64,000 bases of DNA from Staphylococcus phage S6: the sequence record LC680885.1. The stretch is one strand, 5' to 3'. Both the position numbers and the translations under genes were made by a program. This document shows, in pieces, positions 1,501-36,359 of this stretch. Within the stretch, counting starts at the first letter, position 1. Every line of letters starts with the position of its first letter. Below the pieces are notes generated by a model. That model worked only from the letters and a program-made list of their open reading frames with translations, searched no databases and was not told where the DNA came from.

Positions 1501-2010
1501 AGATGTAACAGCTTTCTTAGGAGCTGCTTTCTTAACTACTTTTTTCTTAGGAGCTGCTTTCTTAGTAGTTGCTTTTTTAGTAGCTGTACTACTAAAGGCT
1601 GGACGAATTACTCCCCAAAATCCTGTATAATCATGGAATACTTTAGCTGCAGGTGAACCATTGCTACCTGCGTTAAACCAGTTCTGGTCAATTGAATAGA
1701 AATTGTTTAAGTTAGCTGAAGTGATAATACCTGTATGACCATAAACATCATATGGAGGATTAGCCCAAATAGCTATATCTCCTGGTTGAGGTAAGAATGA
1801 TGGAGTATTTTTAATAAGTTTCCATCCTGAAGGCATTGTATTACTTTTAAGATCTTTAGCGTTACCCCAAGGCCAGAATTTTCCATCAGTTAAATAATTA
1901 CAATAACCGATAGTCAAATCCATACATTGAGCTCCATAAGCTCCATCCATGTCAAGTCTACGACCAATACGATTATTAACCCAATTCAAAGCTTGAGTTT
2001 TAGTTTTCAT
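1213..2010 (-). CDS. endolysin, CHAP-domain peptidase with C-terminal SH3b (SH3_5) cell-wall-binding domain
   Basis: N-terminal CHAP signature (conserved Cys in GAQCMDL..., His in YGHTGII). Lys/Ala/Thr-rich linker. C-terminal about 95 aa nearly identical to the C-terminus of the neighbouring amidase (WKRNSAGILWKTEKATFKC...GKFKGQYVYVP...), typical of staphylococcal SH3b. Confidence 0.85.
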   Translation of the reverse strand: MKTKTQALNWVNNRIGRRLDMDGAYGAQCMDLTIGYCNYLTDGKFWPWGNAKDLKSNTMPSGWKLIKNTPSFLPQPGDIAIWANPPYDVYGHTGIITSANLNNFYSIDQNWFNAGSNGSPAAKVFHDYTGFWGVIRPAFSSTATKKATTKKAAPKKKVVKKAAPKKAVTSAKWKRNSAGILWKTEKATFKCNVASGIITRKNGPWTGWPTGPFMKKGDSIKYEEIQDFDGLIWVSGKFKGQYVYVPIGKSNGKGQRIGNAWGTFS

Positions 2011-2107
2011 ATTTTATTCAAACCCTTTCGATAAATTTTCTTTATTTCTTTATATTTAGTTGTTCTTTTATAAAAATAATATGTTTCATAATAGTATAAA
2101 AATAAAT

Positions 2108-2140
2108 ACCCTAACGAATCTTTAATATGATCGTTAGGGT
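2108..2140 (-). terminator. rho-independent terminator hairpin ACCCTAACGA/TCGTTAGGGT
   Basis: 10-bp perfect inverted repeat flanked by A/T runs, immediately downstream (minus-strand sense) of the amidase gene. Confidence 0.6.
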
Positions 2141-2175
2141 ATATAAAATTATAATTTAAATTATAGAATCATTTA

Positions 2176-2465
2176 TTAGCTAAATGTTCCCCATGCTGGA
2201 CCAATACGTTTACCGTTACCATTTGATTTACCTACTGGTACGTATACATATTGTCCCTTAAATTTACCTGAAACCCAAATATATCCGTTAAAATCTTGGA
2301 TTTCATCATATTTAATAGTATCACCTTTAGACATACGAGGACCTTGAGGCCATCCAGTCCATGGACCATTTTTACGAGTAATAATTCCTACAGATACACC
2401 ACATTTGAAAGTAGCTTTTTCAGTTTTCCATAGAATACCTGCTGAATTACGTTTCCAAGTAGTTG
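2176..2465 (-). repeat. SH3b-encoding segment, copy 2
   Basis: Direct nucleotide comparison with 1213-1500. Confidence 0.8.
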
Positions 2466-3126
2466 AAGTTTCAGTACTTGTTTTCTTAGGTTTAGCAGGT
2501 GCTTTAGTTTTAGTAGTAGATTTAGTTGCTGTTGAAGTTTTAGCTGTAGAAGTAGCACCATTTTTCATATAAGCTAGAACCTTTTTATCTACATTAGAAA
2601 CACTACGAGACATACCGCATGCAGCTAATAAGTTACCTGGATCTTGTTTGTCTGCTTGGATATCTTGATGCCCTGGCATATTTGTACTTGCATTAATTTT
2701 ATATTCTTTACATAAGAAAGCAAGAACACGACAATAGTTATCAAATGATTTTAATGAACGACTTCTATTAGAGAAGTAACATCCTTCAACACCAATAGCA
2801 CCATCATTAGCATCAATACCATACCAAGAATTATCAGTAGGTGTATTGTACATAACATGCCATGCTTTTTCATCTAAAGGAACACAGATAATACATTCTT
2901 TATCATCAACAAAGATATGAGCTGACGCTGTATAGTTCCAATCAATATTATATGTGTTACGGTAATAATCAACATTATTTTGAGCTGTTGTATTAGGGTT
3001 TCCTGTGTCATGAGCAACAATAAATTTAGGTCCGTTAAGCTTGTCTCCAGCTCTACGAGTACCTATTGGTAAAAAATCAGTATAAACAGGAACACCGTTC
3101 CATGTACCGATATGTTTTTTAGCCAT
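2176..3126 (-). CDS. endolysin, N-acetylmuramoyl-L-alanine amidase (Amidase_2/PGRP type) with C-terminal SH3b domain
   Basis: Amidase_2-like N-terminal domain (FIVAHDTGNPNTTAQNNVDYY...HIFVDD...). Thr/Lys-rich linker. C-terminal SH3b paralogous to that of 1213-2010. Confidence 0.85.
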   Translation of the reverse strand: MAKKHIGTWNGVPVYTDFLPIGTRRAGDKLNGPKFIVAHDTGNPNTTAQNNVDYYRNTYNIDWNYTASAHIFVDDKECIICVPLDEKAWHVMYNTPTDNSWYGIDANDGAIGVEGCYFSNRSRSLKSFDNYCRVLAFLCKEYKINASTNMPGHQDIQADKQDPGNLLAACGMSRSVSNVDKKVLAYMKNGATSTAKTSTATKSTTKTKAPAKPKKTSTETSTTWKRNSAGILWKTEKATFKCGVSVGIITRKNGPWTGWPQGPRMSKGDTIKYDEIQDFNGYIWVSGKFKGQYVYVPVGKSNGNGKRIGPAWGTFS

Positions 3127-3194
3127 AAAAAATTTCCTCCTTGATATTTATATTACTAATTAAAGTAATTTCTATATTTAAGTGTTCTATATTT

Positions 3195-5534
3195 TTAATA
3201 CTTGATTTCTGTAGATACGATTAATTTATTTTGGTATCTTCCACCTCTAGTGTAAACTTTACTATCAGTGTCACCTACATTAATACTATTTTCAGATCCA
3301 TAACCTATACATTCATCTAAGAATAAATTACTACCTGATGAAGCTTGGAAGTCTTTTCCTTGATAACTTTCAAATGCAATACAACCTAAATTCCATGATT
3401 GCGTGTCTGCATTTACATCAGCTACATTACCTCCATCATTTCTTCCATATATACCATTTATTCTAATGATTTTTAATCCATCATGAGTAGTTGATCCGTT
3501 ATTTGATTTAACACCATTCAATCCTTTATCGGTTCCATTATCCATACCTATACAATTAATTTCTATTATATTAGGTTTAGAACCATCGGCTCCAATATGA
3601 TAATTTAAACCATCAAAACTATTATAATTACCTTTACAGCTATCAAGAATAATATCTTTACCACCAACAATAGCAAGACCATTGTAACTTGAAGCGGAAT
3701 GATAAAAATTACATTTCTTAAAGAATGCACTGTTATTTGAAGTTAAATTCAATTCAACACAGTTTCTTCCACCATATATATTTAAATTTTCAAAATATAT
3801 ATTTGAAGCTAGACTTGTTAACTGTATATTTGAAGAAGATATTAAAGGTATTACATTACTATTTGAAGGTTTATTATCATTAATATTTGAATAAACTTTA
3901 GTGCCATCAGTAAACCATGAATTAGGCGTGTTTTCAACTTCATCAATACTATTTACTTTCTTTATATCAATACTATTATCTAGAGTTACAACTTTATCGG
4001 TAGAAGATCTACTAAATTCATAAGTTCTATTTTTATCAGAAGTTAGTGTCCATGAAGGTTCATCAGCCATAATAATATTCACATTATTACCTGTACCTAT
4101 TATATTAATGCTTTTATTAAAGGCTTTTGTAATTAATGCACCACCAATTCTAAAATAATTGCCATCAGCAACCATAATTGTATCATTATCATTGACTTTA
4201 GGTATTACTACTTTAAAAGATTTAAATGGGGTTTCTTTAGATAAACCATCATTAGAATCATTACCATTAACAGCATCTAAGTAGTAAGTAGTTCCTCCTG
4301 ATAATCTATTAGTAGTTATATCATATTTCACTCCAAAAGTACCTTTTCCATCAGTAACAATTCTATTTTTTAATATTTCATTACCATAATTGAAATCATT
4401 AGGTTTTCTAACTGTTATTGGAAGAGTAGGTGCATAATTACCATCAAGACCGGGTAAACCTTGTAGACCTTGAGTTCCAATCTTACCTGTATCACCTTTT
4501 AACCCATTTAATTGTTCTTCAGTAAAATCAGAGTACTCGAAAGGATCTCCTTTTTCACCTTTTAATAGATCTAATTGTTCTTGAGTGAAATCGGAATATT
4601 CAAAAGGGTCACCTTTTTCACCTTTTAACTCAGATAACTGTTCTTCAGTAAAATCAGAGTACTCGAAAGGATCTCCTTTTAATCCATTTAACTGCTCTTC
4701 AGTAAAATCAGAGTATTTGAAGGGGTCGCCTTTAGGACCTTGTATACCTGGATCACCTTCATACATTTCGGCATTTTCTATCATATAATTCTTAAGATTT
4801 TCTTTATAATCTAATAAATTATTTTCAAAATCATCTATTTTATTATTAAATGAATCTTGTGAAGTTTTTAATTCTTCAGATTTATCTTTTATAAGATTTA
4901 ATTTTTCTTCAACCTTAATTACATCATTTTCCATGTTCTTAACATAATTTGTAGTCTCACTAAGTTTTTCCATTTCATCATTAAGACTCATTGTATTGTT
5001 ATAATTACTATTGAATTGTTCTCTTACAGTTTCAAAATCAGTTAAAGTATCTTTCATACTACTTAATTTATTATTCATATCTTCTATTGTTGAAATTACA
5101 TCTTCTTTTTCAGATTGGAGGTCTAATTTTTTATCTTCAATACTATATTTAAAACTATCTAGCTCACTCAAATATGAATTAAGATTATCATCATCAATTA
5201 AATTTTCTTTAATTAAGTTAAGTTTTTCTTCCGCTTTTCCATTAATATTATCTATATCATTAGATATTATTTTTATCTGTTTAAAAGCTTCATTTACTTG
5301 AAGATACTTTTGTTTTATAAAATCTTCAATAGAGAAATAATCAGCTACGTCATATTCTCCATCTGAATTTAGATCAACATATTCATTTTTATTTACCTTT
5401 ACATATTGAATATTCATTAAATCATAATAATCTAATGTATTTCTATCAACATAATAAGGTTTATTTATAGGTCCCATACCTTTACCCGGAATATAAGTTT
5501 TTTGAGGAACTATAATTAGTACACTATCTTCCAT
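3195..5534 (-). CDS. tail fibre / receptor-binding protein with coiled-coil, collagen-like repeat region and C-terminal beta-helix (pectate-lyase-like, possible depolymerase)
   Basis: 779 aa. N-terminal PGKGMGP..KP module. Long coiled-coil-like N/K/E-rich stretch. Five tandem copies of KGDPFEYSDFTEEQLxxL followed by a GxY triplet run (KGDTGKIGTQGLQGLPGLDG). C-terminal Asn/Gly/Ser-rich part with repetitive beta-helix-like pattern (NIYGGRNCVELNLTSNNSAFFKKCNFYHS...). Confidence 0.6.
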   Translation of the reverse strand: MEDSVLIIVPQKTYIPGKGMGPINKPYYVDRNTLDYYDLMNIQYVKVNKNEYVDLNSDGEYDVADYFSIEDFIKQKYLQVNEAFKQIKIISNDIDNINGKAEEKLNLIKENLIDDDNLNSYLSELDSFKYSIEDKKLDLQSEKEDVISTIEDMNNKLSSMKDTLTDFETVREQFNSNYNNTMSLNDEMEKLSETTNYVKNMENDVIKVEEKLNLIKDKSEELKTSQDSFNNKIDDFENNLLDYKENLKNYMIENAEMYEGDPGIQGPKGDPFKYSDFTEEQLNGLKGDPFEYSDFTEEQLSELKGEKGDPFEYSDFTQEQLDLLKGEKGDPFEYSDFTEEQLNGLKGDTGKIGTQGLQGLPGLDGNYAPTLPITVRKPNDFNYGNEILKNRIVTDGKGTFGVKYDITTNRLSGGTTYYLDAVNGNDSNDGLSKETPFKSFKVVIPKVNDNDTIMVADGNYFRIGGALITKAFNKSINIIGTGNNVNIIMADEPSWTLTSDKNRTYEFSRSSTDKVVTLDNSIDIKKVNSIDEVENTPNSWFTDGTKVYSNINDNKPSNSNVIPLISSSNIQLTSLASNIYFENLNIYGGRNCVELNLTSNNSAFFKKCNFYHSASSYNGLAIVGGKDIILDSCKGNYNSFDGLNYHIGADGSKPNIIEINCIGMDNGTDKGLNGVKSNNGSTTHDGLKIIRINGIYGRNDGGNVADVNADTQSWNLGCIAFESYQGKDFQASSGSNLFLDECIGYGSENSINVGDTDSKVYTRGGRYQNKLIVSTEIKY
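4495..4745 (-). repeat. tandem repeat with 51-bp period, about 5 copies, inside the tail fibre gene
   Basis: Repeated ...ttcagtaaaatcagagtactcgaaaggatctcctttt... units visible in the nucleotide sequence. They encode the KGDPFEYSDFTEEQL repeats. Confidence 0.85.
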
Positions 5535-5713
5535 ACTATATTTCCACTCCTTTAAATTTGATCTGTAAAATCCCCCTAATATATTTTTAAATCGATGATT
5601 ATTCTATTCTTATAATTATTGGCTCATCGTTTAAAGTTATATATTAGGGGAACTAATTTTAGTCGAAAAAACTAACGAAAATTAATTTTTATTATATAAT
5701 AATGTTATAAATT

Positions 5714-7639
5714 TTAACCATTAATAATTTTAAAAATATTTTCGTTTAATAAATCTCTTTCTAATCTACTTTCTTCAGAAAGTTTTTCCATCAATTCTTC
5801 TTCTGTATATTCATCAAAAGATACAGAATTATATCCATTAATAGAAATAGAAGATTCATTAACTTGAATTGATTTATTTACATTTAGATCATTAATGCTT
5901 TCTTCTAAGAATTTTTTAAGGCGTGTTTCATCTCTATTAGGTACATTTTCATAGGCTTCAAACACTATATCTTCATAGTATTCTTCTAATGATTCTTCAA
6001 AACCTTCATAAAGTGAATCATCTTTATTTTTTAATTGGAAATTAATATCTTCTTCTAGCAATTCTAAATTAACTTCTTCAGATAATCTTTCTTTAACATC
6101 TTCGTTAACTTCATCTAAAGGATTAAGATAATTTTCTAATAAACCTGATTCTGATTCATTATTAACACGTTGAATTGTATTCATATTGAATTCTTTTTCT
6201 AAGTTTTCTAAAGTTATTTCATTATCTGTATAGAATTCTTTAAGAACTTTATTTACTTTAGGTTCAACTACAATAACTTTCTTAAATCCTAAACCGAAAT
6301 CAACTTTATCAACTAATAATGAAGAAGGATTATATACTTTAGGAACTTCATCCATATAAGATTCTTTACTAATAACGATATCAACACGTTTACCTAAAGA
6401 TTCAGATAAAGCATTTGTATATCTAATTAAGTCTTTAATTGTGTAAGTTTCATTAACTTCTTCTTCATTAATAACTTTAGTTTTAAATTCAATATCAGTA
6501 GATCCACAATTTTCACATACTAATTCATCTTCATTAACGTTAGGATCAACTGTTTCTTGAACTCCACATTCGTTACAAATTACTTCTCCAACTTCTTTAG
6601 AACCTTTTAAGGCTTCTTCAAGTTCTTCATTACAATTCTCACATACTAATTCATTTGATTCATTCATTGTTAGATTGCTTCCACAATTTTCACAAACAGC
6701 TTTTCCATTTTCAATTTTACCAGTTTCACTTAAAATACGTCTAACAGTTTCAATTGATTCATTAGTAACAAAAATCTGTTTTTCATTTTCGTTCTCTAAT
6801 TTAAATGTATTTAATAGAGTTTCATGAATTTTCTCTGCATGATTTTTAAAAGATTTAACTACAGCAAAATCAGAATCTTCTCTCATATATACATATGGGA
6901 AAGCTTGATTGTTTTTATCATCAACATAATTTTCATTAGCAATTATATTTTGTTTTTCAGTATTAACTTCTTTAGATTCTGGAGTACCAATAGCATATCC
7001 TACTTCAGCAGGAGTGTCTAATATTCCATTTTTTAAATCTACAAAAGTAAATTCAGGTGCTGGATCTTTATCGTATAAATAAGTTTCAGTAACTGCTCCT
7101 CCAACACTTGGAGAACCATTTGCAGCAGACAAACCTCCATCACTAACAGAACTTGCATTGGTATTTGCATTAGAAGTACTTACTGAATAAGTCGCATGTG
7201 GACCAAAAGTAGTAGGAACCATCATTTGAGAATCTAAGAATTTAGCTCTTAATTCAGAATATCCTGGTTGTTTCTTATCTTCATCATCGTCTTCTTTTTC
7301 ATCTTCGAATAAATAATCTTCTTCAACAGAAATTTCAGGATCTGAATTAGCTACATCAGTAATGATAACTTCATCTTTATCAGCCACGATTGGTTGATCG
7401 TAATCAGGATGATCCGAATCAATTACTTGAACATCGTCTTCATCTTCAGCATCTTCAATTTCATCAAGATCATCAGATTCCTCATCATCAATTTCTTCTT
7501 CATCTTCATTAATTATTTCGTTAAACATTTCTTCTAATTCTTCATCATCTTCAGGAATATCACGTTTTAATTCTTCATTTTCATCATCATTTAAATCATC
7601 TTCAAATAATAACATATCATTTTTATTTTCTTCAGACAT
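5714..7639 (-). CDS. highly acidic protein with two C4 zinc-ribbon motifs
   Basis: 641 aa. N-terminal about 120 aa almost entirely D/E. CENCGSNLTMNESNELVCENCN and CNECGVQ...VCENCG motifs. Confidence 0.6.
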   Translation of the reverse strand: MSEENKNDMLLFEDDLNDDENEELKRDIPEDDEELEEMFNEIINEDEEEIDDEESDDLDEIEDAEDEDDVQVIDSDHPDYDQPIVADKDEVIITDVANSDPEISVEEDYLFEDEKEDDDEDKKQPGYSELRAKFLDSQMMVPTTFGPHATYSVSTSNANTNASSVSDGGLSAANGSPSVGGAVTETYLYDKDPAPEFTFVDLKNGILDTPAEVGYAIGTPESKEVNTEKQNIIANENYVDDKNNQAFPYVYMREDSDFAVVKSFKNHAEKIHETLLNTFKLENENEKQIFVTNESIETVRRILSETGKIENGKAVCENCGSNLTMNESNELVCENCNEELEEALKGSKEVGEVICNECGVQETVDPNVNEDELVCENCGSTDIEFKTKVINEEEVNETYTIKDLIRYTNALSESLGKRVDIVISKESYMDEVPKVYNPSSLLVDKVDFGLGFKKVIVVEPKVNKVLKEFYTDNEITLENLEKEFNMNTIQRVNNESESGLLENYLNPLDEVNEDVKERLSEEVNLELLEEDINFQLKNKDDSLYEGFEESLEEYYEDIVFEAYENVPNRDETRLKKFLEESINDLNVNKSIQVNESSISINGYNSVSFDEYTEEELMEKLSEESRLERDLLNENIFKIING

Positions 7640-9614: not shown

Positions 9615-10643
9615 TTAGTTTAGTTTAAATTCCTCATCTAATATTTTTTCTAAATTTTCAATAACTTTATCATCTTCATCAATTTCAGGTTTCTTATCAG
9701 GAGCTTTCTTGAAGATAGATACAAATTTATTTCCATTACTTTGAACCCATTTTTGTGCTTCTTTGAAACGATCTGCAACTATTCCAATAGGTATTCTTCG
9801 AATTTTATCTTTACCTTTATATTTAACAGGTACTTCTAAAGCAGCGTTTTTACCACCAGTACGTTTGGCTACTACTACAACATTACTTGAATCAATCCTA
9901 ATACCTTTACTTTTAGCTTTTATTTTAAAATTCATACAAGCTTTAGCAAAATCCGCTTCAAGCGTATCAGGCTCAACAATTCCTTCTTGAACTGCAACGT
10001 CTGAAGTATTACCACAATCTTCACATACTAATTGTCCTGATTCATTTGGAGACATTTTAGATCCACATTCTTCACAAATAGGTTCTTCTTTATCAGTATC
10101 AATATCTCTTTTTAATTCTTCATTTAATTTTTTCTTACTATTTTTCAATTTCTCTTTATATTCTGCAATCTTTCTTTTTTTCTCTTTTTTATCTTTAGTA
10201 TTTTTAATATCTTCAATATCTTTTCGAAGTTCTAATTTTAATTTATCCTTCTTAATTCTACTTTCAGCAGCTTTTTTAGCTTCATCTGAAGGTTTCATCT
10301 TTTTAAGTTCAGGAAAAACTAATGACTTATTTTTATTCATTATTCTTTCATACTGTCCACCTGAAGCAATAGTTCTATTAATTCTAACTACAGCAAAATC
10401 TCTTTCTGTATTTTCTCCACTAACTAGATTTTTACATTTTACTTCTAAGTTTATATTAGTTCCCATATAAACAAATTTAATAGGTTGGAAGTTAGCATAT
10501 CCTTGTTTTGTTAAACCATCTATCCCTTTTTGATATTGGTTTATGATAACACCTATCATGCTTTTAAAAAAATCTTGTTCTGGATCTTCATTAACTAAAT
10601 TAAATTCTTTGTCTAGAGATTCTTCTAAAGATTTCAAATCCAT
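9615..10643 (-). CDS. hypothetical protein with C4 zinc ribbon and terminal LEESLDKEF-type motifs
   Basis: 342 aa. N-terminus MDLKSLEESLDKEFNL, C-terminus ENLEKILDEEFKLN. CEECGSKMSPNESGQLVCEDCG resembles the ribbon in ORF 5714-7639. Confidence 0.55.
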   Translation of the reverse strand: MDLKSLEESLDKEFNLVNEDPEQDFFKSMIGVIINQYQKGIDGLTKQGYANFQPIKFVYMGTNINLEVKCKNLVSGENTERDFAVVRINRTIASGGQYERIMNKNKSLVFPELKKMKPSDEAKKAAESRIKKDKLKLELRKDIEDIKNTKDKKEKKRKIAEYKEKLKNSKKKLNEELKRDIDTDKEEPICEECGSKMSPNESGQLVCEDCGNTSDVAVQEGIVEPDTLEADFAKACMNFKIKAKSKGIRIDSSNVVVVAKRTGGKNAALEVPVKYKGKDKIRRIPIGIVADRFKEAQKWVQSNGNKFVSIFKKAPDKKPEIDEDDKVIENLEKILDEEFKLN

Positions 10644-10747: not shown

Positions 10748-13700
10748 TTAAAGCATATCTTTTACTTTACGTTTTAATTCTATTAAAGCTTTATTAGTTG
10801 CCAGCATTAAATAAATATCAGTAGTCATACGAGATACGATACTTAATGGAGAGAATATAGCTTCAATTTCTTCGTCAGGTCTATATTCTGCATAAGGAGA
10901 TTCATTAGGAGGAGTAACATCAGCAATAACTGTTTTACATGCACCGTAGAAACTGATCTTATCACCAATACTCATATCATCTTCATACTCTGTGAAGATT
11001 TCAATAAGCACTCCATCTACTTTCTCACCTTTAATTTTCTCACTATTAATTTTCTCTACAGCTGGAATATCTACATCTAATCCAGGTAATGTAGATTTAT
11101 TATCTTTAACTGCATTTTTGTATTCTCTATATTTACTTTTAGATTTATTAATATAACTATTAACTAATTTAGCTAATGTAGGAGACATATTTTCAATATC
11201 ATCATTATAATAGATATTTACTTTTTTAATTTCTCCAGTATATTTAGATCTAACAGCTCTATTAGAAATATCTTGTATTTCTTGTTCGAATTCAGAACCG
11301 ATTTTATCTAATAAAGAACCAATACCTTCATCATCAAATGAATTCTCAAATATCATTAATGGGTCTCCTGTACGTACATTTTGACCTTCTTTAACAATAT
11401 ATTGAATATTCGTACTAGAAGCTAAGTTGACTGTTTTCTTCATAGTAACTTTAGTTGACATTGCTTCAGACATACTATTAGAAATAATAGAACTATCTTC
11501 GTACGTGCCATAGCTTGAAGCAACTGCAACTTTAGATAATTTACCAGCAGCAAATTGAATATCATTATTACTGCCAGATCCTGCAAAGTAACTATCATTT
11601 TTAGCCAATACTTGTCCTTTATTAAATTTCTTACCTACTTCAAATTGTGGAGTAAGTTTATTATTTTGATAGAAACCACCATTAGAGTTTTTAGCAAGTT
11701 TTTCAGATATATCAATTACATCTTTATCTCCATTAATGTATTCAACAAGCATTAATCCTGTTTTCTCATTAACAGAAGTTACTTTCCCATCTTCTTTAGC
11801 TTTAAAAGCAAAAGTATCTGAAATTTGATAGGCTAAAGATTTATCTACACCAGATCCAACTAATGGACGGTCATTTGTTTTAGTAGCGATTAAATGTTTA
11901 GCTTGGGTACCTGTCATTCCTATTCTCGGACTATCTGCATGTCTACTAGTATATGGGTTCAATAATTCTAATGGAGTATATAAAGCTGTATCACTTACAT
12001 CTTTTTTACTACCATCAGTATATCCACGAGTAGATTTAATCTGTGTATCATATGAAAGTTGTCTAACTATACCTACTTTATTACTGTCAGGTGTGCTTAT
12101 TCCTAATATACCTTGCATACTTTCATCATAAGAACGAATATCAGGTTCATATGATTGTTCAGAGTTACGTCCAGCAGGACCTTTAAATGTAACAGAAGTC
12201 ATCTTATCTATTTCTAAGTTAGGGTTTAAATCAGATACTTCATCTACTGTAGGTTGTTCCATAATAGTTTTAATTAATTGATCTTGTTTAACTGAAATAT
12301 TCTTAGGATTTTTATTATTATAAGAATCTGAATATTCTTTATAAGCATTTGCCATCATTTTATACAATAATGCGTTAATTTGCTCTGGTCCACGTACACG
12401 ATAAATTCCCATATCATTATGATCTCTAGCCGATACATCTTCTAACATCGTATTAGCTAATAGTAATAATTCAACCATATTATCAGGAAGTTTTAAATCT
12501 CTTAATACTTCTTTAGTAATAGGATCCATTGCTAAATCCATAGTATTTTTAATACCTTTACCAACATTACGACTGTAGAATTTATCATTGAAATATTCTA
12601 AGTAAGGTGTTTCAGTTTCAAAATCACTGAAATTGTATTGTGAAGTAGGTAATACAGTTAATCCAGACATTAATAAATCAAATCTTAATTTATCAGTAGA
12701 GTATATTAAATAACCGTCTTGGAATTTAATCTTATTCTTTTTATCATGAATGCTAATTCTTTCATTCTCAGTAGTAAATTTATAATCAACTTCATAAAGA
12801 TCAAGAATATTAGTTAAACCTTTATAGAAACCTAATAATAGAATTGTAGGTACTAGTTTATTAGTAATTTTAACACGTGAAAATGCCATCGTCTTATTAG
12901 ATTGAATATTCTTACTGAATTTCTTATCAATAACTCCAAAGTCAACTTCATTATCTAGTTTATCAATAATGTAATCAAATATATTTACTTCCATAGATTT
13001 AATATTAGATTTACTACATTCATACATAACAGATTCTGTTTTATCTGCTAATATTAATTTAGATTTATTAATATTATAACCAATAGGGAAATATTTATCT
13101 TGATCATAATCAATCTTAGATAAACTAGCACTATCAGAAATCATACCTAATAAACTTCTTTGGTTGAATTCAAGTACATTAGTACCATCTTGGAAATTTA
13201 ATATATTTCTAGATAAACTATTATAGATAACTGAAGTTACATATTTATTATTGATTAAAGAAGCATTACCCTTTTTAACAGATAAGTTAGATTTATTTTC
13301 AATATAATCTATAACTTGATCATCTTCAATAACTTTCTTAATCCATTCAGTTTCAGCATTTTCTTTATAACCGAATTTTTCTATAATGAATTTATTATAG
13401 TTAGTTGTAATCCAAACAGTATCAGGTTTATATTTAACGATTGGCCACATCATTAATTGTTTAGTTAATACTTTTTTACCGCCATTAAGTTTCATATATT
13501 TGCCGTCAATAACTTTAGGAACATCAAATTTAACATTATGAGTTAAACCATCTGGACTTCTAAATTGGACTTTAACTGTATTTTTTAATGACTGACTATC
13601 TGAATTATCTTCAATATTCATTTTATTAATAAATACCGGAATATCTTCATTGTCATTAAAGCTTTTCATTATATCAATAAAGTCTTTATTAAATGTTTTT

Positions 13701-15001
13701 TGCATATAAGAGATATCAAAATCATTAGAAGCAATGTTATTAATAGTCTCTTCATTGATATTATTAATATTTTCATTAATTTCTCTATCGATTAATTTAT
13801 CTTCAGAAAAACTAAAATCTTCTAAATCATTAAGGTATTCATCTTGTTTCTTAGATAAAGCTAATATCTTTTTAGTATTTTTAAGAGCTTCATCACCAAT
13901 GCTAGATTTATTTTTAATATTTCTTTTAATTGATTTAAATGAATCATTCTTGTCTAATACATCTGAATATAAAGTTTCTGTATCAATATCAATTAAATCT
14001 TTATTATCATTTAATTCTTTTTCAATTATCATAGCTATATTATATTCATCATCAACATCCATTTCAGTATTGTCTAATGATCTAATATAACTTATTGTAG
14101 AATCTATTTTATTAGATATTTTTTCTAACTGTTCATCATTTTCATATTCAACTTCATCATTCTGAGCTTCGATAGGATCAATTGTTCCTACATTATCAAA
14201 TGCTTTCTTTTTAATTACTCCATCTACAGCTTCAGTATTATCATCATCTTCAACTTTACTAATTTCATCAGTATCCAATGCTTGTGTATTAGTGTCAATG
14301 ATTCTTCTTAATCTTTGTCTAAGTCTCATATTAAGTTTATTATAATCTTTGTAATCAAATTTAAACATTATTCCATTATCTAATGAGACAAATAATAAAT
14401 CAACATTTTGATTTTCACCATGAGGTAATTCTTCTTGATTCTTAATCATCATGAATAAGCTTGACATGAAATCTTTTGTATTAGGTCTAATAGCTTGTTG
14501 AGAAGGTTTATTATATCCATCAACATTAATTACATAAAGTAAATTATTATAATCTTCTGTATTATTTAAAGAGTTAAAAGTTGATTTAATTGAATTTAAT
14601 ACTGTATTAAAGTTTTTAGTCATTAATGATTTATCTTCTAAATCAATAAATTTAGTTGAATCAACAATATAGTTTCTACCTTTAAATAATTTCTCATTTC
14701 TTTCAACTCTATACTGTTTATAAGATTTAGATTTAATTTCTTTTTGATAATCTGTTATATTCGTTAATAATCTAGTTCTTCTATTTTGAGTTCTATACAA
14801 TCTTGGTGTATAGATATTCTTGAAATTCTGATGATATAATAATCCACTATTTAAGAAATCAGTAAATGAATTTTCTTTAAAACCTTTATAAATAACTAAC
14901 TGGTCTTTTTTCTTATCTTTGATTTCTTCATCAATAGCTTTAATTTTATATCCAGATATTGAATAGAATTTAAGATTTTTTAATCTATTAAGATATTTCA
15001 A
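10748..15001 (-). CDS. multisubunit RNA polymerase beta-like subunit (non-canonical, phiKZ/AR9-type split RNAP), carrying conserved regions D-H
   Basis: 1417 aa. GPAGRNSE...ISTPDSNKVGIVRQLS aligns to bacterial beta GPGGL...ETPEGPNIGLINSLS. ADSPRIGMTGTQAKHLI aligns to ANRALMGANMQRQAVP. SSYGTYEDS aligns to GYNFEDS. GDKISFYGACKTVIA...PYAEYRPDEEIEAIFSPLSIVSRM aligns to GDKMAGRHGNKGVIS...[22 protein letters not shown]. No GEME region I after this point. About 350 aa of extra N-terminal sequence. Confidence 0.7.
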   Translation of the reverse strand: MKYLNRLKNLKFYSISGYKIKAIDEEIKDKKKDQLVIYKGFKENSFTDFLNSGLLYHQNFKNIYTPRLYRTQNRRTRLLTNITDYQKEIKSKSYKQYRVERNEKLFKGRNYIVDSTKFIDLEDKSLMTKNFNTVLNSIKSTFNSLNNTEDYNNLLYVINVDGYNKPSQQAIRPNTKDFMSSLFMMIKNQEELPHGENQNVDLLFVSLDNGIMFKFDYKDYNKLNMRLRQRLRRIIDTNTQALDTDEISKVEDDDNTEAVDGVIKKKAFDNVGTIDPIEAQNDEVEYENDEQLEKISNKIDSTISYIRSLDNTEMDVDDEYNIAMIIEKELNDNKDLIDIDTETLYSDVLDKNDSFKSIKRNIKNKSSIGDEALKNTKKILALSKKQDEYLNDLEDFSFSEDKLIDREINENINNINEETINNIASNDFDISYMQKTFNKDFIDIMKSFNDNEDIPVFINKMNIEDNSDSQSLKNTVKVQFRSPDGLTHNVKFDVPKVIDGKYMKLNGGKKVLTKQLMMWPIVKYKPDTVWITTNYNKFIIEKFGYKENAETEWIKKVIEDDQVIDYIENKSNLSVKKGNASLINNKYVTSVIYNSLSRNILNFQDGTNVLEFNQRSLLGMISDSASLSKIDYDQDKYFPIGYNINKSKLILADKTESVMYECSKSNIKSMEVNIFDYIIDKLDNEVDFGVIDKKFSKNIQSNKTMAFSRVKITNKLVPTILLLGFYKGLTNILDLYEVDYKFTTENERISIHDKKNKIKFQDGYLIYSTDKLRFDLLMSGLTVLPTSQYNFSDFETETPYLEYFNDKFYSRNVGKGIKNTMDLAMDPITKEVLRDLKLPDNMVELLLLANTMLEDVSARDHNDMGIYRVRGPEQINALLYKMMANAYKEYSDSYNNKNPKNISVKQDQLIKTIMEQPTVDEVSDLNPNLEIDKMTSVTFKGPAGRNSEQSYEPDIRSYDESMQGILGISTPDSNKVGIVRQLSYDTQIKSTRGYTDGSKKDVSDTALYTPLELLNPYTSRHADSPRIGMTGTQAKHLIATKTNDRPLVGSGVDKSLAYQISDTFAFKAKEDGKVTSVNEKTGLMLVEYINGDKDVIDISEKLAKNSNGGFYQNNKLTPQFEVGKKFNKGQVLAKNDSYFAGSGSNNDIQFAAGKLSKVAVASSYGTYEDSSIISNSMSEAMSTKVTMKKTVNLASSTNIQYIVKEGQNVRTGDPLMIFENSFDDEGIGSLLDKIGSEFEQEIQDISNRAVRSKYTGEIKKVNIYYNDDIENMSPTLAKLVNSYINKSKSKYREYKNAVKDNKSTLPGLDVDIPAVEKINSEKIKGEKVDGVLIEIFTEYEDDMSIGDKISFYGACKTVIADVTPPNESPYAEYRPDEEIEAIFSPLSIVSRMTTDIYLMLATNKALIELKRKVKDML

Positions 15002-15461
15002 TTATGCCATTCCTTTCCGTATTTAATTTTATTGATTAATATATTTATATTACTTTTATTTTATAATATTATTCAATAAATTTCCTATATACAATAGTTT
15101 TGATTACTATCATTATGTATTTTAATTGGATTTATAAAAATAAAATAACGAACTATGTGAGTTATTTTTAAATACATTTTTATGAAATAAAAATGTGTAC
15201 TATCCCCTCATAATATTTTAATTTATATAAATATACTATAAGAATAGTATATTTATTATTATAATATTTTATTATAATATAATTATAATATTCCGGACAC
15301 TTTCAAATTTTTTATCACATAATGGTACAAATTTATAATTTTTTAAATAATTAATATAAAAATATTTATTAACTTCATACATATTGTTTAATTATATAAA
15401 AATTATAAAATACTCAGTAACATCTAAATATCAATAAAATAATGAAAGAAGTGAAAATAAA
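15002..15461. promoter_or_regulatory. AT-rich divergent intergenic region between the RNAP beta-like gene (minus) and the beta-prime-like gene (plus); presumed divergent promoters
   Basis: 460 bp with no ORF, over 85% AT, containing repeated attataat-type tracts. Genes diverge on both sides. Confidence 0.4.
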
Positions 15462-16688
15462 TTGGCTAATATGAATTATGAAAATAAAACACTTAATGAA
15501 AAAGAAGTATCGACATTATTAAGTGTTGGTAAAGATGACATTACATTAGACAAGTTAAAAGAATTATTTGCTTTTAGACAAAATACAGAACCAATGTATA
15601 ATCCAACGGATAAATTTACATTAAAGAAAGATCTAGTCTATAATAAAAAAGATGAAAAAACTACTGTAGGTAGATATATATTTAATAAATTTATTTTAGA
15701 TAATAAAATTGGACCGATTATAGGCTATATGAATCGTGATATGGGCGGTTCTGGAGTAGGTAAACTTCAATCTGATTTATCAAATTTATTACTTAATGAT
15801 ATTATTACTACACAAGAAATGTCAAATTATATCGATAAATTACAATGGTTAGGTTTCTCTATAGCCAGTTTTATTAATTCTAGTCTAACTACTACAATGA
15901 TGACTGCTACTGAAAAAGTTAAACAGAAAAAAGAAGAGTTATTAGTTAAATATGAAAAAGCATTGAATACTCCTGGAGAGGAATTAAATGCAATATCAGT
16001 TATTGAAAAAGAATTAATCAATTTAAGTAAAGAAGAATTAAAAGGTTTAGCTGATTTAGATATTTATGATAGTGGTTCACGTGGTTCATTCGGCAATAAC
16101 TATAAATTAACTGCATTAATTCGTGGAGCAAATAAAAACTTTGCTGATCCAAGTAAAATTAGAATTGCTAAAAGCTCACTAGCTGAAGGAATTGATCCTA
16201 ATGAACTTTATATGTTTGGAGATATTATGACTGCAGGTTCAGCTGGACGTGCACTAGGTACTCAAGAAGGAGGGTATCAGGCTAAGCAACTAATGTCGGC
16301 CTTCCAAACAACTGTTTTAGATAAAAAAGGTTCTGACTGTAGAACAAATCATTTCCTTAAATTAATATTAGATAAATCAAACGCATCATTAATGATGTAT
16401 AGATATTTTAAAGATAATAACGCAAGATCAGGTCAATTAGTTTTATTAACTCCTGAAAATGTAGATGATTACATGGGTAGAGTTTTAGAATTTAGAAGTC
16501 CTATGTATTGTGCAAGTGAAGATATTTGTAGTAAATGTGCAGGAGAATTACCATATAAATTAGGAATTGAAAATATTGGTCTATTAGTTAACCAAGTTGC
16601 TCAAGCAATCGTAACAAGTTCAATGAAATCTTTCCATGATATGACGATTAAACAAAATGAAATAGATATAGAAAGTTATATAGAATAA
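15462..16688 (+). CDS. multisubunit RNA polymerase beta-prime-like fragment (regions F-G, trigger-loop region), non-canonical split subunit
   Basis: 408 aa. KTTVGRYIF aligns to beta-prime DTTVGRAIL. IYDSGSRGS aligns to MMADSGARGS. LAEGIDPNELYMFGDIMTAGSAGRALGTQEGGYQAKQLMSAFQTTVLDKKGSDCRT aligns to [54 protein letters not shown]. The start may be TTG at 15462 or ATG at 15471. Confidence 0.65.
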   Translation: MANMNYENKTLNEKEVSTLLSVGKDDITLDKLKELFAFRQNTEPMYNPTDKFTLKKDLVYNKKDEKTTVGRYIFNKFILDNKIGPIIGYMNRDMGGSGVGKLQSDLSNLLLNDIITTQEMSNYIDKLQWLGFSIASFINSSLTTTMMTATEKVKQKKEELLVKYEKALNTPGEELNAISVIEKELINLSKEELKGLADLDIYDSGSRGSFGNNYKLTALIRGANKNFADPSKIRIAKSSLAEGIDPNELYMFGDIMTAGSAGRALGTQEGGYQAKQLMSAFQTTVLDKKGSDCRTNHFLKLILDKSNASLMMYRYFKDNNARSGQLVLLTPENVDDYMGRVLEFRSPMYCASEDICSKCAGELPYKLGIENIGLLVNQVAQAIVTSSMKSFHDMTIKQNEIDIESYIE

Positions 16689-16826
16689 CATAGATAGGAT
16701 AACAATCATTAAATTGATTGTTATCCTTATTTTATTGGATTAAATCGTTCTTTAAATTTATATTATAATTATGAGGTGAATGATGTGTATTAATGTGATA
16801 TACTTATAATTATAAAAATAAATTTA

Positions 16827-18920
16827 ATGGAGATGAAATGGATAATGTTAGGTAAAGAAATAATGAGAAGATCTGAAATAATTTACGATGATACGGATAT
16901 AAAAACTGTTTTAAATTTAGATCCGGATAAAGATTACATAAATGAAGAAGAGGATATCGAATATATCTGTCCTAAACATGGTAAACAAAAAAGAAAAATA
17001 AAACAACATTTAGAAAAGAAAGGTTGTTTCGAGTGTCAATACGATAATAAGTCTAAAAAGACTAAAGGTAAAGATTTATTAGGAGAGTTTTACAAAAGAT
17101 TTGGAGAAGATGTTTTTGATTATCCAGATATAGAAGAAGATCGTGTATATTCATCTAGAGAAAAAATAAAGATAGTTTGTTTTAAACATGGAGAGTTCAC
17201 TAGACAAATTAGAGAACATAATACAAAAGCTAAAATATGTGATAAATGTAAATTAGAGGATGGAGGAAAAGATTTTAAAAAGAAACAATTTAAAGAAAGA
17301 TTGAGAAATGAAAATTATGAAATGTATAAGATTACCGATTTTTCTGAGACTGTATTTGAAGGGTTAACTAATTTTATGTATGTTAGATGTAAAAAACATG
17401 ATACGATTAACAAAATACAACCTAGATCATTACTAAGTAAGAATAGTAATGGGTGTTCAAAATGTAGAAGTGAAAAACTATTAAAAAGTAGAAGATCTAA
17501 TAACAAGGTATATAACGTGGAAGATATTTTTAACATATATAAACAAAAAGGAAATCTTTTAAATACTGCGACTAAATATCTTGAAAATTTAAATCTCGAA
17601 CAAAGAAAAGAGTTATTCTTAATGATATCCAAACATAATTTTGGAAATAAGTATGACTATTCTTTAATAGAAAAAGAAAAAAATAATTTTAAATCTAGAG
17701 ATAAAGTAACACTAATATGTAAAGAACATAATGTCGAATTTAAACAAAATATATCACACCACTATAAAGGTAGGTTAGGTTGTGATAAGTGTAAAAAGGA
17801 TAATGTGTCTAAAAGTATATCTGACTCATACAGATTTTCTAAAAGAACAGATATAAAACCTGAAGAATTAATAAAAGAAGTGGATAATGAAAATTTCAAA
17901 GATAATGAGATAAGAAAAATAGTGAGATTAATGAATTTTGAAGATAAAGGAAAATATTACAGATTATTAGGGAAAAAGATTAAGGGAGATAAATATAACT
18001 ATGATAAATTAGTGTATAACGGTGATAGTGTTCAGGTAACTATAACATGTAAAAAACATGGAGATTTTAAACAGGTAATATACGATCACTTTTTCCAAGA
18101 TCATAATTGTAATAAATGTTCAAAGATCGTATCCAAACAAGAACTTAAATTAAGTAATGATTTGGAAAAATATTTTACAGTTAAAAATTCTTTAAGAAGA
18201 ATATTTGAGGATAAAAGAAAAGAAATTGATATATTTATCAAAGATATTAATTTAGGTATAGAGATAAATGGTCTAAGATGGCATTCAAATGATATAAAAA
18301 AGGAGGATGAAAATAATTTTGCAAGATACCATCAATTTAGTAAAATGAATGAATCTGAATGTTTAGGTATAAAATTATTAAACTTCTATGACGATGAAAT
18401 AAATATAAAGAAAAATGAAATTTCTTATTCTAAAATAATGAAAGAAATTTTATTATTTAATAATTCCTTTAATATTAAAAATATAGATTTAAAAGATTTA
18501 GAGATGAAAAAGATATCTTATAATTTCATAAAGAAATTTTATAAGAAACATTCACTAGAATTCTTTAATGAAGAAGATAAAAATTATAGAGGAATATTCT
18601 ATAAAGGTTATATAGTTTCCGTATTCTCATTTAATAATAAGAACGAATGTCATAACTATAGCACGAATTACAATTTAAATGAAGATATTGATTTAATATT
18701 AGATGCTTACCCTAATACCATTTTTAATATTAGATCAGATTCTTATAATAGATATAAATTTCAAGATTATGGGTTCATTACAATAAATAAAACTCTACCG
18801 CAATATAGAAATTTCAATAAAAAAGGTTTAACTAAAAATAGATATAAAAGATTAGAAAAGAGGGATACTAATAATCCTAATAGAATTTATGATTGTGGTA
18901 GAACTATCATGATTTACTAA
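16827..18920 (+). CDS. homing-endonuclease-like protein with five tandem CxxH...CxxC zinc modules and C-terminal Vsr/DUF559-like PD-(D/E)xK nuclease domain
   Basis: 697 aa. Modules ICPKHG...GCFECQ, VCFKHG...ICDKCK, RCKKHD...GCSKCR, ICKEHN...GCDKCK, TCKKHG...NCNKCS. C-terminus IDIFIKDINLGIEINGLRWHS...ECLGIKLLNFYDDEI resembles Vsr (FVVDEYRCVIFTHGCFWHH...ELGWRVLIVWECAL). The start may be the ATG at 16845. Confidence 0.55.
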   Translation: MEMKWIMLGKEIMRRSEIIYDDTDIKTVLNLDPDKDYINEEEDIEYICPKHGKQKRKIKQHLEKKGCFECQYDNKSKKTKGKDLLGEFYKRFGEDVFDYPDIEEDRVYSSREKIKIVCFKHGEFTRQIREHNTKAKICDKCKLEDGGKDFKKKQFKERLRNENYEMYKITDFSETVFEGLTNFMYVRCKKHDTINKIQPRSLLSKNSNGCSKCRSEKLLKSRRSNNKVYNVEDIFNIYKQKGNLLNTATKYLENLNLEQRKELFLMISKHNFGNKYDYSLIEKEKNNFKSRDKVTLICKEHNVEFKQNISHHYKGRLGCDKCKKDNVSKSISDSYRFSKRTDIKPEELIKEVDNENFKDNEIRKIVRLMNFEDKGKYYRLLGKKIKGDKYNYDKLVYNGDSVQVTITCKKHGDFKQVIYDHFFQDHNCNKCSKIVSKQELKLSNDLEKYFTVKNSLRRIFEDKRKEIDIFIKDINLGIEINGLRWHSNDIKKEDENNFARYHQFSKMNESECLGIKLLNFYDDEINIKKNEISYSKIMKEILLFNNSFNIKNIDLKDLEMKKISYNFIKKFYKKHSLEFFNEEDKNYRGIFYKGYIVSVFSFNNKNECHNYSTNYNLNEDIDLILDAYPNTIFNIRSDSYNRYKFQDYGFITINKTLPQYRNFNKKGLTKNRYKRLEKRDTNNPNRIYDCGRTIMIY

Positions 18921-19160: not shown

Positions 19161-19233
19161 TGTCCCATAGCTCAACGGTAGAGCGATCGGCTGTTAACCG
19201 GTTTGTTGAAAGTTCGAATCTTTCTGGGACAGC
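19161..19233 (+). tRNA. tRNA-Asn (anticodon GTT)
   Basis: Cloverleaf: acceptor TGTCCCA/TGGGACA, U8, D-arm GCTC-AACGGTA-GAGC with GG, anticodon stem ATCGG/CCGGT, loop CTGTTAA, T-arm GAAAG-TTCGAAT-CTTTC, discriminator G. No encoded CCA. Confidence 0.8.
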
Positions 19234-34625: not shown

Positions 34626-36359
34626 TTGGATAAAGTTAAAGAATTAGAGTACAAAGAGGATTTAGATTTAAAAAAGATTGATGAATTAGTTAATAATGAC
34701 GTGGAAGTACCCCTATTATCTAGTAATGTCAATAAGCTTAAAAGAGTCTCTGGTAATTTTGAATTAACTAATGAATACATTAATTCTAAAGACTTAGATA
34801 CACTTGAAAGAAAAAATAAAAATGGTAAAATTGAATTGGAGTACATACAGAGAACAGATATTCTACCATTAGTTAAATTTATTGAAAGTGAAAAGAATGA
34901 TACTATATTTATAGATTTCAATAAGATATTAGAAACTGATAATCGTAAAGTACCTAAGGATGAAGAGTTTGATAATATATTTACTATTCAAATTAAACAA
35001 AGATCTTACAAGAGTATTTTAGATTATATTGTAAATGATATGAATTTTATAGTTAATGAGATTCCTCACATAATGATTAAAGGTGCTACTATATTAAGTA
35101 AGATAGCTAAATTAAGAGAGAATTATAAAGAAGAAGATTTCTTCAGAGATATTCAGAATATTATTGAAGATGAAGATTTAAGAAATGTTATTAGAAATAT
35201 TGTTGATAATAACTATACAATTAATTTAGATCAAACTAATGCTGAAGCTATGTTACAAAGTAAGAAAGTTATTAAGAGAGATTTACAAGTAACTGACCAA
35301 GTAAATAAATCATTCTTATCTACAGCTGTAATGCAAAGATTTATTATTCCGTTTATTAGTCAATATTATGTAACTACCAATAAGTATCATTGTGAAAATT
35401 CTGATGCAGATAAGGAAAGAACTAAAAATGGTTACTTTAAAGCATTTAATTATTGTATGTGTATTTCTTCATTCGATTATAATGTAAGTAATAATAATAA
35501 ACTTTATAAAATTGTAGAACCTAAAGTAATCAAAACAAAATACAATGATAGAGTTATCTGGAGATTCTTAGATTTACGTTCAATTGACCCTGACACTGTT
35601 ATTAATAAAATAATGGATAAAATCATTAGACAAATTGTATGTAAATTATTAGTAGATACTTCTGCAGTATCTTACTTTACGTCTGTTATTAAATTCTCAA
35701 TCGATTATGAATTTCAGTACAAATATCCAATTAAGTTTAGATCAATACGTTTATCTACAGATGATGACGATGATGAAGATAGCTTCGATAAATTCCAAAT
35801 GAATAACTTCCATAAAGTTAATGAACGTTTAGATTTAGCTAATAAAATCACTATTGATAGATTTATTAATGAACGTTTAGAAGAATTAAATATTAGTGAT
35901 GATTACATTAATCGTTTATATGATAAATTTGATTATATTAATGACTTACAATCTCATTTAATTAAAGTTTATTTTGCTGAATACTTTAACGTTAATACAA
36001 ATGATAGAAAGAGCATTGTTTCATTACTGGCTATTATGTCTAAAGAACTTATTGATAATAATATGGAAACTTTAGGAAAAATAGTAGCAAGTAAAGTTGT
36101 TTCAGGTACAAAAGCTAAAAATGTAGGTAAATTATCATTAGACGTAATTGCAGATAAATATTATATTGCTGCTTGGGATAAATATAGATTTATCAATGAT
36201 ATTACTGAAAAAGATAACTTTATCTTACGTATAGCATTAGTAAATGGATATTCATTTAACTTCACTCCTGAAGATAAAGAAGAAGATGAAGAAGTTATTG
36301 CTGATATTGATAAGAAATACTTTATCTCTGAAGTATCACAATTTATTTCTCAATACTAA
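34626..36359 (+). CDS. hypothetical protein
   Basis: 577 aa. TTG start with AGGAG at -10. Confidence 0.55.
   Translation: MDKVKELEYKEDLDLKKIDELVNNDVEVPLLSSNVNKLKRVSGNFELTNEYINSKDLDTLERKNKNGKIELEYIQRTDILPLVKFIESEKNDTIFIDFNKILETDNRKVPKDEEFDNIFTIQIKQRSYKSILDYIVNDMNFIVNEIPHIMIKGATILSKIAKLRENYKEEDFFRDIQNIIEDEDLRNVIRNIVDNNYTINLDQTNAEAMLQSKKVIKRDLQVTDQVNKSFLSTAVMQRFIIPFISQYYVTTNKYHCENSDADKERTKNGYFKAFNYCMCISSFDYNVSNNNKLYKIVEPKVIKTKYNDRVIWRFLDLRSIDPDTVINKIMDKIIRQIVCKLLVDTSAVSYFTSVIKFSIDYEFQYKYPIKFRSIRLSTDDDDDEDSFDKFQMNNFHKVNERLDLANKITIDRFINERLEELNISDDYINRLYDKFDYINDLQSHLIKVYFAEYFNVNTNDRKSIVSLLAIMSKELIDNNMETLGKIVASKVVSGTKAKNVGKLSLDVIADKYYIAAWDKYRFINDITEKDNFILRIALVNGYSFNFTPEDKEEDEEVIADIDKKYFISEVSQFISQY

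Follow-up and report, generated by a model that had tools for sequence, protein, structure and literature searches.

Which part of an RNA polymerase (RNAP) is encoded by a gene that carries most of a bacterial beta subunit, stops before its end and begins with several hundred residues that have no counterpart in beta? This question is raised by a complete gene at 10748..15001 on the minus strand of a 64,000-nucleotide stretch of Staphylococcus phage S6 (record LC680885.1), the whole of which we refer to as the window. An initial annotation, made from the sequence alone, had described the product as a divergent beta-like protein lacking region I. Our answer, which we hold at a probability of about 0.93, is that the gene encodes the large beta-like subunit of a virion-packaged RNAP (vRNAP) of a DC4/MarsHill-type jumbo phage of Staphylococcus related to AR9 and PBS1. 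A single polypeptide would combine a vRNAP-specific module of about 430 residues, the N-terminal half of beta and beta regions D to H, with region I, the clamp module that contacts beta-prime, supplied by a separate protein encoded outside the window.

The finding is already known, having been annotated and published in near-identical phages, and is ordinary for the phage group. Its value is for annotation and it adds no new biology, since earlier work has described the subunit as well as the N-terminal domain and the region-I partner encoded apart from it. The remark in the initial annotation that such polymerases are poorly characterised was overstated (PMC5105663, PMC7598289, PMC7824862, bioRxiv 10.1101/2020.12.14.422802, PMC10638138).

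A beta-like gene shared by Staphylococcus jumbo phages

The gene is one uninterrupted open reading frame (ORF) of 1417 codons, seen both in the ORF list and in its translation, followed by a stop codon at 10748-10750. At the genome's G+C content of about 25% stop codons abound, so that an ORF this long is not credible as a product of chance. Translation starts at a TTG codon (15001-14999), a start shared by the annotations of the relatives DC4 and Madawaska. A ribosome-binding site, GGAAAGGA, can be read at 15011..15018 on the minus strand, ending 9 nt before the TTG, and the Madawaska annotation places one at the equivalent relative position.

Nine Staphylococcus jumbo phage genomes gave megablast matches to the gene. 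Closest in nucleotide sequence is vB_SauM-UFV_DC4 (DC4), with 98.1% identity across 100% of the gene, and the other eight records reach 83-98%. Orthologues are found in DC4 (UFVDC4_00067), PALS_2, Madawaska (CPT_160), MarsHill, LY01, SA1, PB50, AH12 and Machias, and the window is colinear with Madawaska across most of its length. The DC4 gene resembles the window gene in its start, its neighbours and its orientation relative to the gene for the beta-prime middle subunit, and its product is 99.6% identical to the window protein, with 5 substitutions, start codon aside. UFVDC4_00067 has been annotated as an RNAP beta subunit and identified in purified DC4 virions by liquid chromatography-mass spectrometry (PMC10638138).

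Beyond these phages, the protein matches two PHROG families labelled RNAP beta subunit (14872, E 5.9e-196; 3148, E 2.3e-189), and tblastn matched 313 phage records, including PBS1, phiKZ-like phages and SPN3US. Significant homology to the large beta family of jumbo-phage vRNAPs spans most of the protein length. The PHROG, DC4, PBS1 and phiKZ gp178 matches bear out the suggestion that this is the split, divergent RNAP beta of a jumbo Staphylococcus phage of the phiKZ/AR9/PBS1 type. The genome context agrees, since a vRNAP beta-prime fragment and a second, non-virion RNAP (nvRNAP) set are both found. Madawaska has a full set of ten annotated RNAP subunit genes, and the study of MarsHill, Madawaska and Machias annotated subunit genes for both enzymes, five for the virion RNAP and five for the non-virion one (bioRxiv 10.1101/2020.12.14.422802). 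The window is confirmed as DNA of a Staphylococcus jumbo phage that is related to AR9/PBS1 and has two RNA polymerases of its own.

The C-terminal third carries beta regions D to H in order, as had been proposed. To compare it with cellular enzymes we built a family profile from the window protein and 13 homologues (14 sequences) and a reference set of six bacterial RpoB sequences, each with all RpoB Pfam domains. Hhalign pairs residues 923-1393 (10823..12235, minus strand) with beta residues 402-940 of 1182, at 99.55% probability, E 2.1e-23 and about 22% identity. With hmmsearch, the same profile finds bacterial RNAP beta in the PDB, the match to Thermus 1iw7_C (E 1.1e-21) consisting of three colinear pieces, Thermus beta 396-463, 526-696 and 822-880. 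The RpoB-profile match, whose absence the initial annotation had named as one ground for refutation, is thus highly significant over this third of the protein. The matched segment includes the flap insert and the beta-type double-psi beta-barrel.

The individual motifs can be located within it, all on the minus strand. Region D, the rifampicin-pocket region in bacteria, occupies residues 923-982 (12056..12235) and reads SDLNP...GPAGRNS...GISTPDSNKVGIVRQL, with the SDLNP...GPAGRNS stretch at residues 923-947. The region E motif SRHADSPRIGMTGTQ (bacterial EHDDANRALMG) lies at residues 1019-1033 (11903..11947), where the protein reads RHADSPRIGMTGTQ. The region F motif GTYEDSSIIS (bacterial GYNFEDA/S) is at residues 1165-1174 (11480..11509) and holds YEDSS. 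The region H motif IGDKISFYGACKTV (bacterial GDKxxxRHGNKG) spans residues 1345-1362 (10916..10969) and contains GDK(x7)K with the two barrel lysines. The last beta-homologous element is FSPLSIVSRMT, residues 1383-1393 (10823..10855). Both barrel lysines and the acidic motifs are kept in 7 of 7 full-length family members, query included, and GDK(x7)K, ED and HxD hold throughout the family alignment.

A direct Pfam scan of the single sequence found no significant RpoB domain. None of PF04563, PF04561, PF04565, PF10385, PF00562 and PF04560 reaches its gathering threshold in the window protein, and the only one to appear is PF04565 (Rpb2_3), with E 0.28 and a score of 11.8 bits where 21 would be required. 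The PDB matches of a single-sequence phmmer search were marginal throughout (E ~1e-3), and a second homologue search with the family alignment gained only bacterial RpoBs, which served for comparison but left the alignment no deeper. The beta homology rests on profile and structure comparison, as the initial annotation had foreseen. The window protein is not a canonical bacterial RpoB: the Pfam thresholds are not reached and region I is missing.

Upstream of region D, residues 431-922 (12236..13711, minus strand) form the equivalent of the N-terminal half of beta, that is protrusion and lobe. An AlphaFold2 (AF2) model of residues 431-930, built on a 13-sequence alignment, is confident, with a mean predicted local distance difference test score (pLDDT) of 86 and a predicted template modelling score of 0.67. 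Its best Foldseek match in the PDB is 7s00 chain c from the AR9 nvRNAP core (E 5.8e-9, template modelling scores 0.49/0.50), followed by 9rjs chain E from the phiKZ nvRNAP (E 5e-7), with E. coli and many other bacterial beta chains at E ~1e-6 to 1e-5. Chain c of 7s00 is the AR9 orthologue of the Madawaska protein annotated as 'non-viral RNA polymerase beta subunit, N-terminal' (E 8e-74). These matches to N-terminal beta subunits identify residues 431-922 as the N-terminal half of beta, which in nvRNAPs is a subunit of its own and is here fused to regions D to H. Since residues 431-930 fold like this half, the extension without beta counterpart measures about 430 residues. The initial annotation was therefore right that residues are in excess ahead of region D and that a non-beta extension exists, but it put the extension at 350 residues and the start of region D near residue 880, where we find it near 923.

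The structural matches also lend something to a different explanation, in which the protein is a subunit of the middle/late, non-virion polymerase and not of the virion enzyme. Both polymerases are beta/beta-prime-like and highly divergent, and the model of residues 431-930 best matches nvRNAP subunits in a PDB where no vRNAP structure stands for comparison. Our search for a solved virion RNAP structure found none: PDB profile matches fall on cellular-type beta, fold matches on nvRNAP, and a 2026 review mentions none. We nevertheless consider this explanation very unlikely. The nvRNAP beta is encoded by two other genes, CPT_001 (540 aa) and CPT_254 in Madawaska. An nvRNAP beta consists of subunits of about 500 and about 650-700 aa, keeps region I and lacks an extension, whereas the window protein holds the N-terminal half and regions D to H in one chain. 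AR9 and phiKZ nvRNAP beta (7s00 chain c with its C-terminal partner; 9rjs) likewise share the overall beta fold but are split before region D, keep region I and lack the N-terminal module. According to the Sokolova review, vRNAP and nvRNAP differ in where beta is split (PMC7598289), and both sites are reproduced here, after region H for the vRNAP and at the boundary between the N-terminal half and region D for the nvRNAP. The N-terminal module of about 430 residues and the length of about 1400 residues are hallmarks of vRNAP beta (phiKZ gp178 homologue, 1451 aa; SPN3US gp241, 1401 aa), and the detection of the DC4 orthologue in virions speaks against an nvRNAP subunit.

A probable separate gene for region I

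After the SRM motif that follows region H, only 24 residues remain, compared with about 240 more in bacterial beta, where the HARS...GEME block follows. These residues (1394-1417; 10751..10822, minus strand) form a short, family-specific, helix-like tail, ...LIELKRKVKDML. Six full-length homologues stop at the same alignment column with the common tail ...LIELKRK.KDM. The truncation is therefore a feature of the family and not an artefact of sequencing or assembly, and the claimed absence of region I stands.

No GEME-like motif was found by regular expression in window ORFs of at least 100 aa; in this lineage the region-I motif is SNME. A tblastn search of the window with the Madawaska region-I gene returned nothing. 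A 342-aa ORF at 9615-10643 was considered as the missing region I and rejected, as it is a zinc ribbon protein with no beta similarity and the true gene is located elsewhere.

That gene was found in the relatives. In Madawaska it is CPT_233, a three-exon gene annotated as a viral RNAP beta subunit (20947-23293 of the Madawaska locus L008), whose last exon reads ...SVSNMEASALKAIGAQDILRELMGPRSDS... In DC4 it is UFVDC4_00134, intron-less, 677 aa long and annotated as hypothetical (1501-3534 of the DC4 locus L009), about 80 kb from the large-subunit gene. Both lie outside the window. UFVDC4_00134 has 13 PDB matches, each of them a bacterial RNAP beta (E 0.001-0.012), in which its residues 471-640 correspond to E. 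coli beta 1156-1315, and its motif SNMEASALKAIGAQDILRELMGPRSDS aligns with the region-I block of bacterial beta. Pfam Rpb2_7 scores E 0.0034, below threshold, and hhalign puts the same block on beta 1039-1114 with a probability of 2-10%, a low value explained by the use of a single sequence as query. The protein also carries a CxxC...CxxC zinc ribbon at the N-terminal end, together with a long domain to which no function is assigned.

These statistics are weak by themselves, but they agree with the conserved motif and with the literature, and the UFVDC4_00134/CPT_233 homologue probably supplies region I. Iyer et al. described the C-terminal extension past the beta barrel as a separate protein in vRNAPs and a unique N-terminal region on the barrel-containing protein (PMC7824862), and UFVDC4_00134 is listed among the DC4 virion proteins (PMC10638138). 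The search for the missing region I that the initial annotation had called for thus led to a separate gene in DC4 and Madawaska, with statistics (E ~1e-3) that are weak.

Alternatively, region I could have been truly lost, leaving an enzyme that works without the beta clamp module as minimal YonO-type polymerases do. The lack of region I both in the ORF and anywhere in the 64-kb window is what such a loss would produce. We give it little credence, as 7 of the 9 Staphylococcus jumbo phage records share a conserved protein with region I, encoded outside the window, and an eighth, Machias, carries a gene of the same annotation. That protein is, as noted, reported from DC4 virions, and it corresponds to SPN3US gp218, whose packaging depends on gp241.

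The remaining explanation, a degraded or captured host rpoB copy or a pseudogene, takes its only encouragement from the weak direct Pfam signal and can be dismissed: the 1417-codon ORF is intact at 25% GC, catalytic motifs are conserved in distant homologues, identity is about 22% to bacterial RpoB (hhalign) as against 24-45% to jumbo-phage homologues, divergence from DC4 is only about 2% in nucleotides with 5 amino acid changes, no RpoB Pfam domain reaches its gathering threshold, degradation is refuted by a phage family conserved at full length and by the detection in virions, and neither the window nor the fully annotated Madawaska genome, which has split subunits only, holds a canonical rpoB/rpoC pair.

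Three observations weigh against assigning the gene to the virion enzyme with region I supplied in trans. The DC4 orthologue was detected in virions through one peptide only (PMC10638138). The region-I assignment of UFVDC4_00134 is statistically weak (E ~1e-3; hhalign 2-10%). Lastly, a scan of the 460 bp upstream of the beta gene found no convincing promoter. One early-promoter-like TATATTAT lies 280 nt upstream, and the late-promoter-like AACA-N6-TW has no match on the gene's strand in that region; with 33 and 132 copies in the window, respectively, neither element counts as promoter evidence.

Two practical corrections follow for existing records. In Madawaska the large gene bears the label 'C-terminal' and the region-I gene the label 'N-terminal'; judged by content the two labels are effectively swapped (compare the SPN3US nomenclature) and should be fixed. 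UFVDC4_00134 of DC4 should be recorded as the region-I subunit.

The N-terminal module and the virion polymerase

The first 430 residues were modelled with AF2 at a mean pLDDT of 77. Residues 1-250 (14252..15001, minus strand) form a folded alpha/beta domain (pLDDT ~90) that is specific to vRNAP beta and has no counterpart in cellular beta. An acidic linker follows at residues 251-287 (14141..14251), predicted to be disordered (pLDDT <50 for 252-287), then a helical subdomain at residues 288-393 (13823..14140; AF2 helices 287-393, pLDDT 74-87) and a low-confidence linker at residues 394-430 (13712..13822; pLDDT <50 at 396-416 and 424-430) ahead of the beta-homologous part. Net charge is -12 per 50 residues over residues 251-350. 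The alpha/beta domain shows faint likeness only to P-loop kinase or zeta-toxin folds, and no Walker motif. An N-terminal domain of about 400 residues without cellular beta counterpart, as expected of a vRNAP beta, is thus found.

How far this module extends among phages depends on the level of comparison. A HMMER search of 1.84 billion cluster representatives found only 10 related clusters, the long ones aligning N-terminus to N-terminus, and sequence similarity of the module was undetectable beyond the Firmicute-phage group. The PBS1 protein aligns from residue 3 at 32% identity, N-terminal module included, whereas similarity to phiKZ-type gp178 homologues begins at about residue 433 and amounts to only 21-25% identity. 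At the level of fold, Foldseek against predicted viral structures (BFVD) matched the N-terminus of the PBS1 protein (E 4e-16), the unnamed 1393-aa entry G4KK38 (E 7e-11) and the 1453-aa 'RNA polymerase beta subunit' of Photobacterium phage PDCC-1 (E 1.7e-5). The recurrence of the fold together with the N-to-N alignment indicates that the module is an old, family-wide trait of virion RNAP beta subunits.

Its most likely role, by analogy with the proposal for SPN3US gp241, would be head targeting or assembly. SPN3US gp241 has 1401 aa, of which a domain of about 400 residues at the N-terminus lacks prokaryotic beta homology and the rest covers most of beta; in its absence no vRNAP subunit enters the head (PMC5105663). 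We also entertain, as an unlikely reading, that the module is more than a head-targeting tag and could replace a missing cellular factor in a polymerase without sigma or alpha; genes for alpha, omega or sigma partners are absent from the phage group (PMC7598289). Under that reading it could act as an assembly platform, in promoter recognition, or in an auto-inhibition that silences the vRNAP until injection.

SPN3US gp241 and phiKZ gp178 share the architecture of the window protein, likewise having about 1400-1450 aa, a non-beta N-terminal domain of about 400 aa and then beta up to the barrel, but their N-terminal likeness to it is found at fold level only, as for PDCC-1. The region-I partner also differs: 677 aa with a long N-terminal part here, compared with 222 aa in SPN3US, where gp218 is a small C-terminal beta fragment and a virion protein (PMC5105663). 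The closest relatives outside Staphylococcus are the vRNAP beta genes of Bacillus phages, PBS1 genes 80/78 and AR9 YP_009283093, from the uracil-DNA phage group. PBS1 exons share 32% identity over residues 3-946 and about 51% over residues 1037-1413. An HD domain has been reported on the region-I subunit of the Bacillus phages (PMC7598289), whereas we detected none in the Staphylococcus region-I protein or in PBS1 gene 80. With bacterial RpoB the window protein shares colinear regions D to H, the flap insert, the barrel lysines, the ED and HxD motifs and a beta-like N-terminal half, and it differs in lacking region I with the C-terminal clamp and in having the N-terminal module.

From its homologues we infer the following course of events for the window protein. 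The subunit would assemble late in infection with three beta-prime fragments, one of them encoded next door at 15462-16688, and would then be packaged into the head. Injected together with the DNA, the enzyme would need no host RNAP and would use AT-rich promoters to transcribe early genes. In AR9 every vRNAP subunit gene belongs to the late class, and early transcription, the task of the vRNAP, does not depend on new protein synthesis (PMC5312081).

Introns in relatives and the genomic neighbourhood

The alleles of the window, DC4 and SA1 are uninterrupted; each of the remaining six aligns at the DNA level in 2-5 pieces. We mapped the intron sites in three of these six, giving positions as residues of the window protein. 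Madawaska has one intron, near residue 1027; Machias has three, after residues 977, 1031 and 1165; and LY01 has five, after residues 528, 976, 1023, 1031 and 1165. The equivalent window sites, codons 976/977, 1023, 1031 and 1165, lie at about 12071, 11932, 11908 and 11506. In PBS1 and AR9 interruptions of the gene fall in the same conserved motifs; PBS1 has three, near residues 946-950, 982 and 1036, one of them with an HNH endonuclease.

Mini-introns were located in Machias at 4806-5017 and 5420-5599 of the locus L010, and inserts in LY01 at 4879-5058, 5200-5572 and 5975-6162 of the locus L011. Short AT-rich inserts of 180-212 nt belong to one sequence family and are placed exactly in beta motifs D, E and F. 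In LY01 two mini-inserts flank a mini-exon of 24 nt encoding SPRIGMTG. Core elements read by eye in the inserts, AATTGCTGxGAAA, AATCAGCATC, GTTCAACGACTAAATA and GATATAGTCT, resemble the classical P/Q/R/S elements of group I introns, a likeness that suggests an intron nature. Rfam group I (RF00028) did not recognise the inserts at its gathering threshold or at E up to 1, and the R-like element has no copy in the whole 64-kb window.

The region E motif at residues 1019-1033 is an intron hot-spot in the relatives. The site near residues 1023-1031 corresponds to the conserved HDD motif, which in phiKZ gp178 is the cut site of gp210, an intron endonuclease of phiPA3 that mediates competition between co-infecting phages (PMC11620839). 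The intron-free allele of the window is a plausible target for homing endonucleases and introns of related phages.

The divergent neighbour of the beta gene, at 15462..16688 on the plus strand, encodes the 408-aa middle subunit of vRNAP beta-prime (PHROG 2962, E 1.5e-75); its Madawaska counterpart CPT_161 is annotated 'viral RNA polymerase beta-prime subunit, mid-domain'. The spacer between the two vRNAP genes (15002-15461) has 460 bp and about 20% GC, and one AACA-N6-TW occurs 43 nt upstream of the beta-prime gene. Beyond it lie two large HNH/homing-endonuclease-like genes on the plus strand, one of 697 aa at 16827-18920 and one at 19794-21743, with a tRNA-Asn (19161-19233, plus strand) between them, near the beta-prime gene. 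The first has no Madawaska counterpart: the alignment skips window positions 16688-18918, which marks the gene as a free-standing mobile insertion that varies between isolates. Further along, close to a GroEL-like gene, a 577-aa homologue of the nvRNAP promoter-specificity subunit of the AR9 gp226 type is encoded at 34626-36359 on the plus strand (PHROG 25005, E 1.5e-53; Madawaska CPT_180).

On the other side of the beta gene, directly downstream on the minus strand, the ORF at 9615-10643 encodes a CxxC(x17)CxxC zinc ribbon with lysine-rich linkers, set between two beta-rich halves. Its Madawaska homologue is CPT_158 (hypothetical), and searches found no family or PDB match for it except generic zinc ribbons. 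A 1651-aa ORF at 55829-60784 (plus strand) has no PHROG or Pfam match. In its place Madawaska has a longer hypothetical gene, CPT_198 of 6084 nt, and the DNA alignment with Madawaska breaks at window positions 59398-59837 and 60337-60413, so that isolates may differ here by indels or in gene structure.

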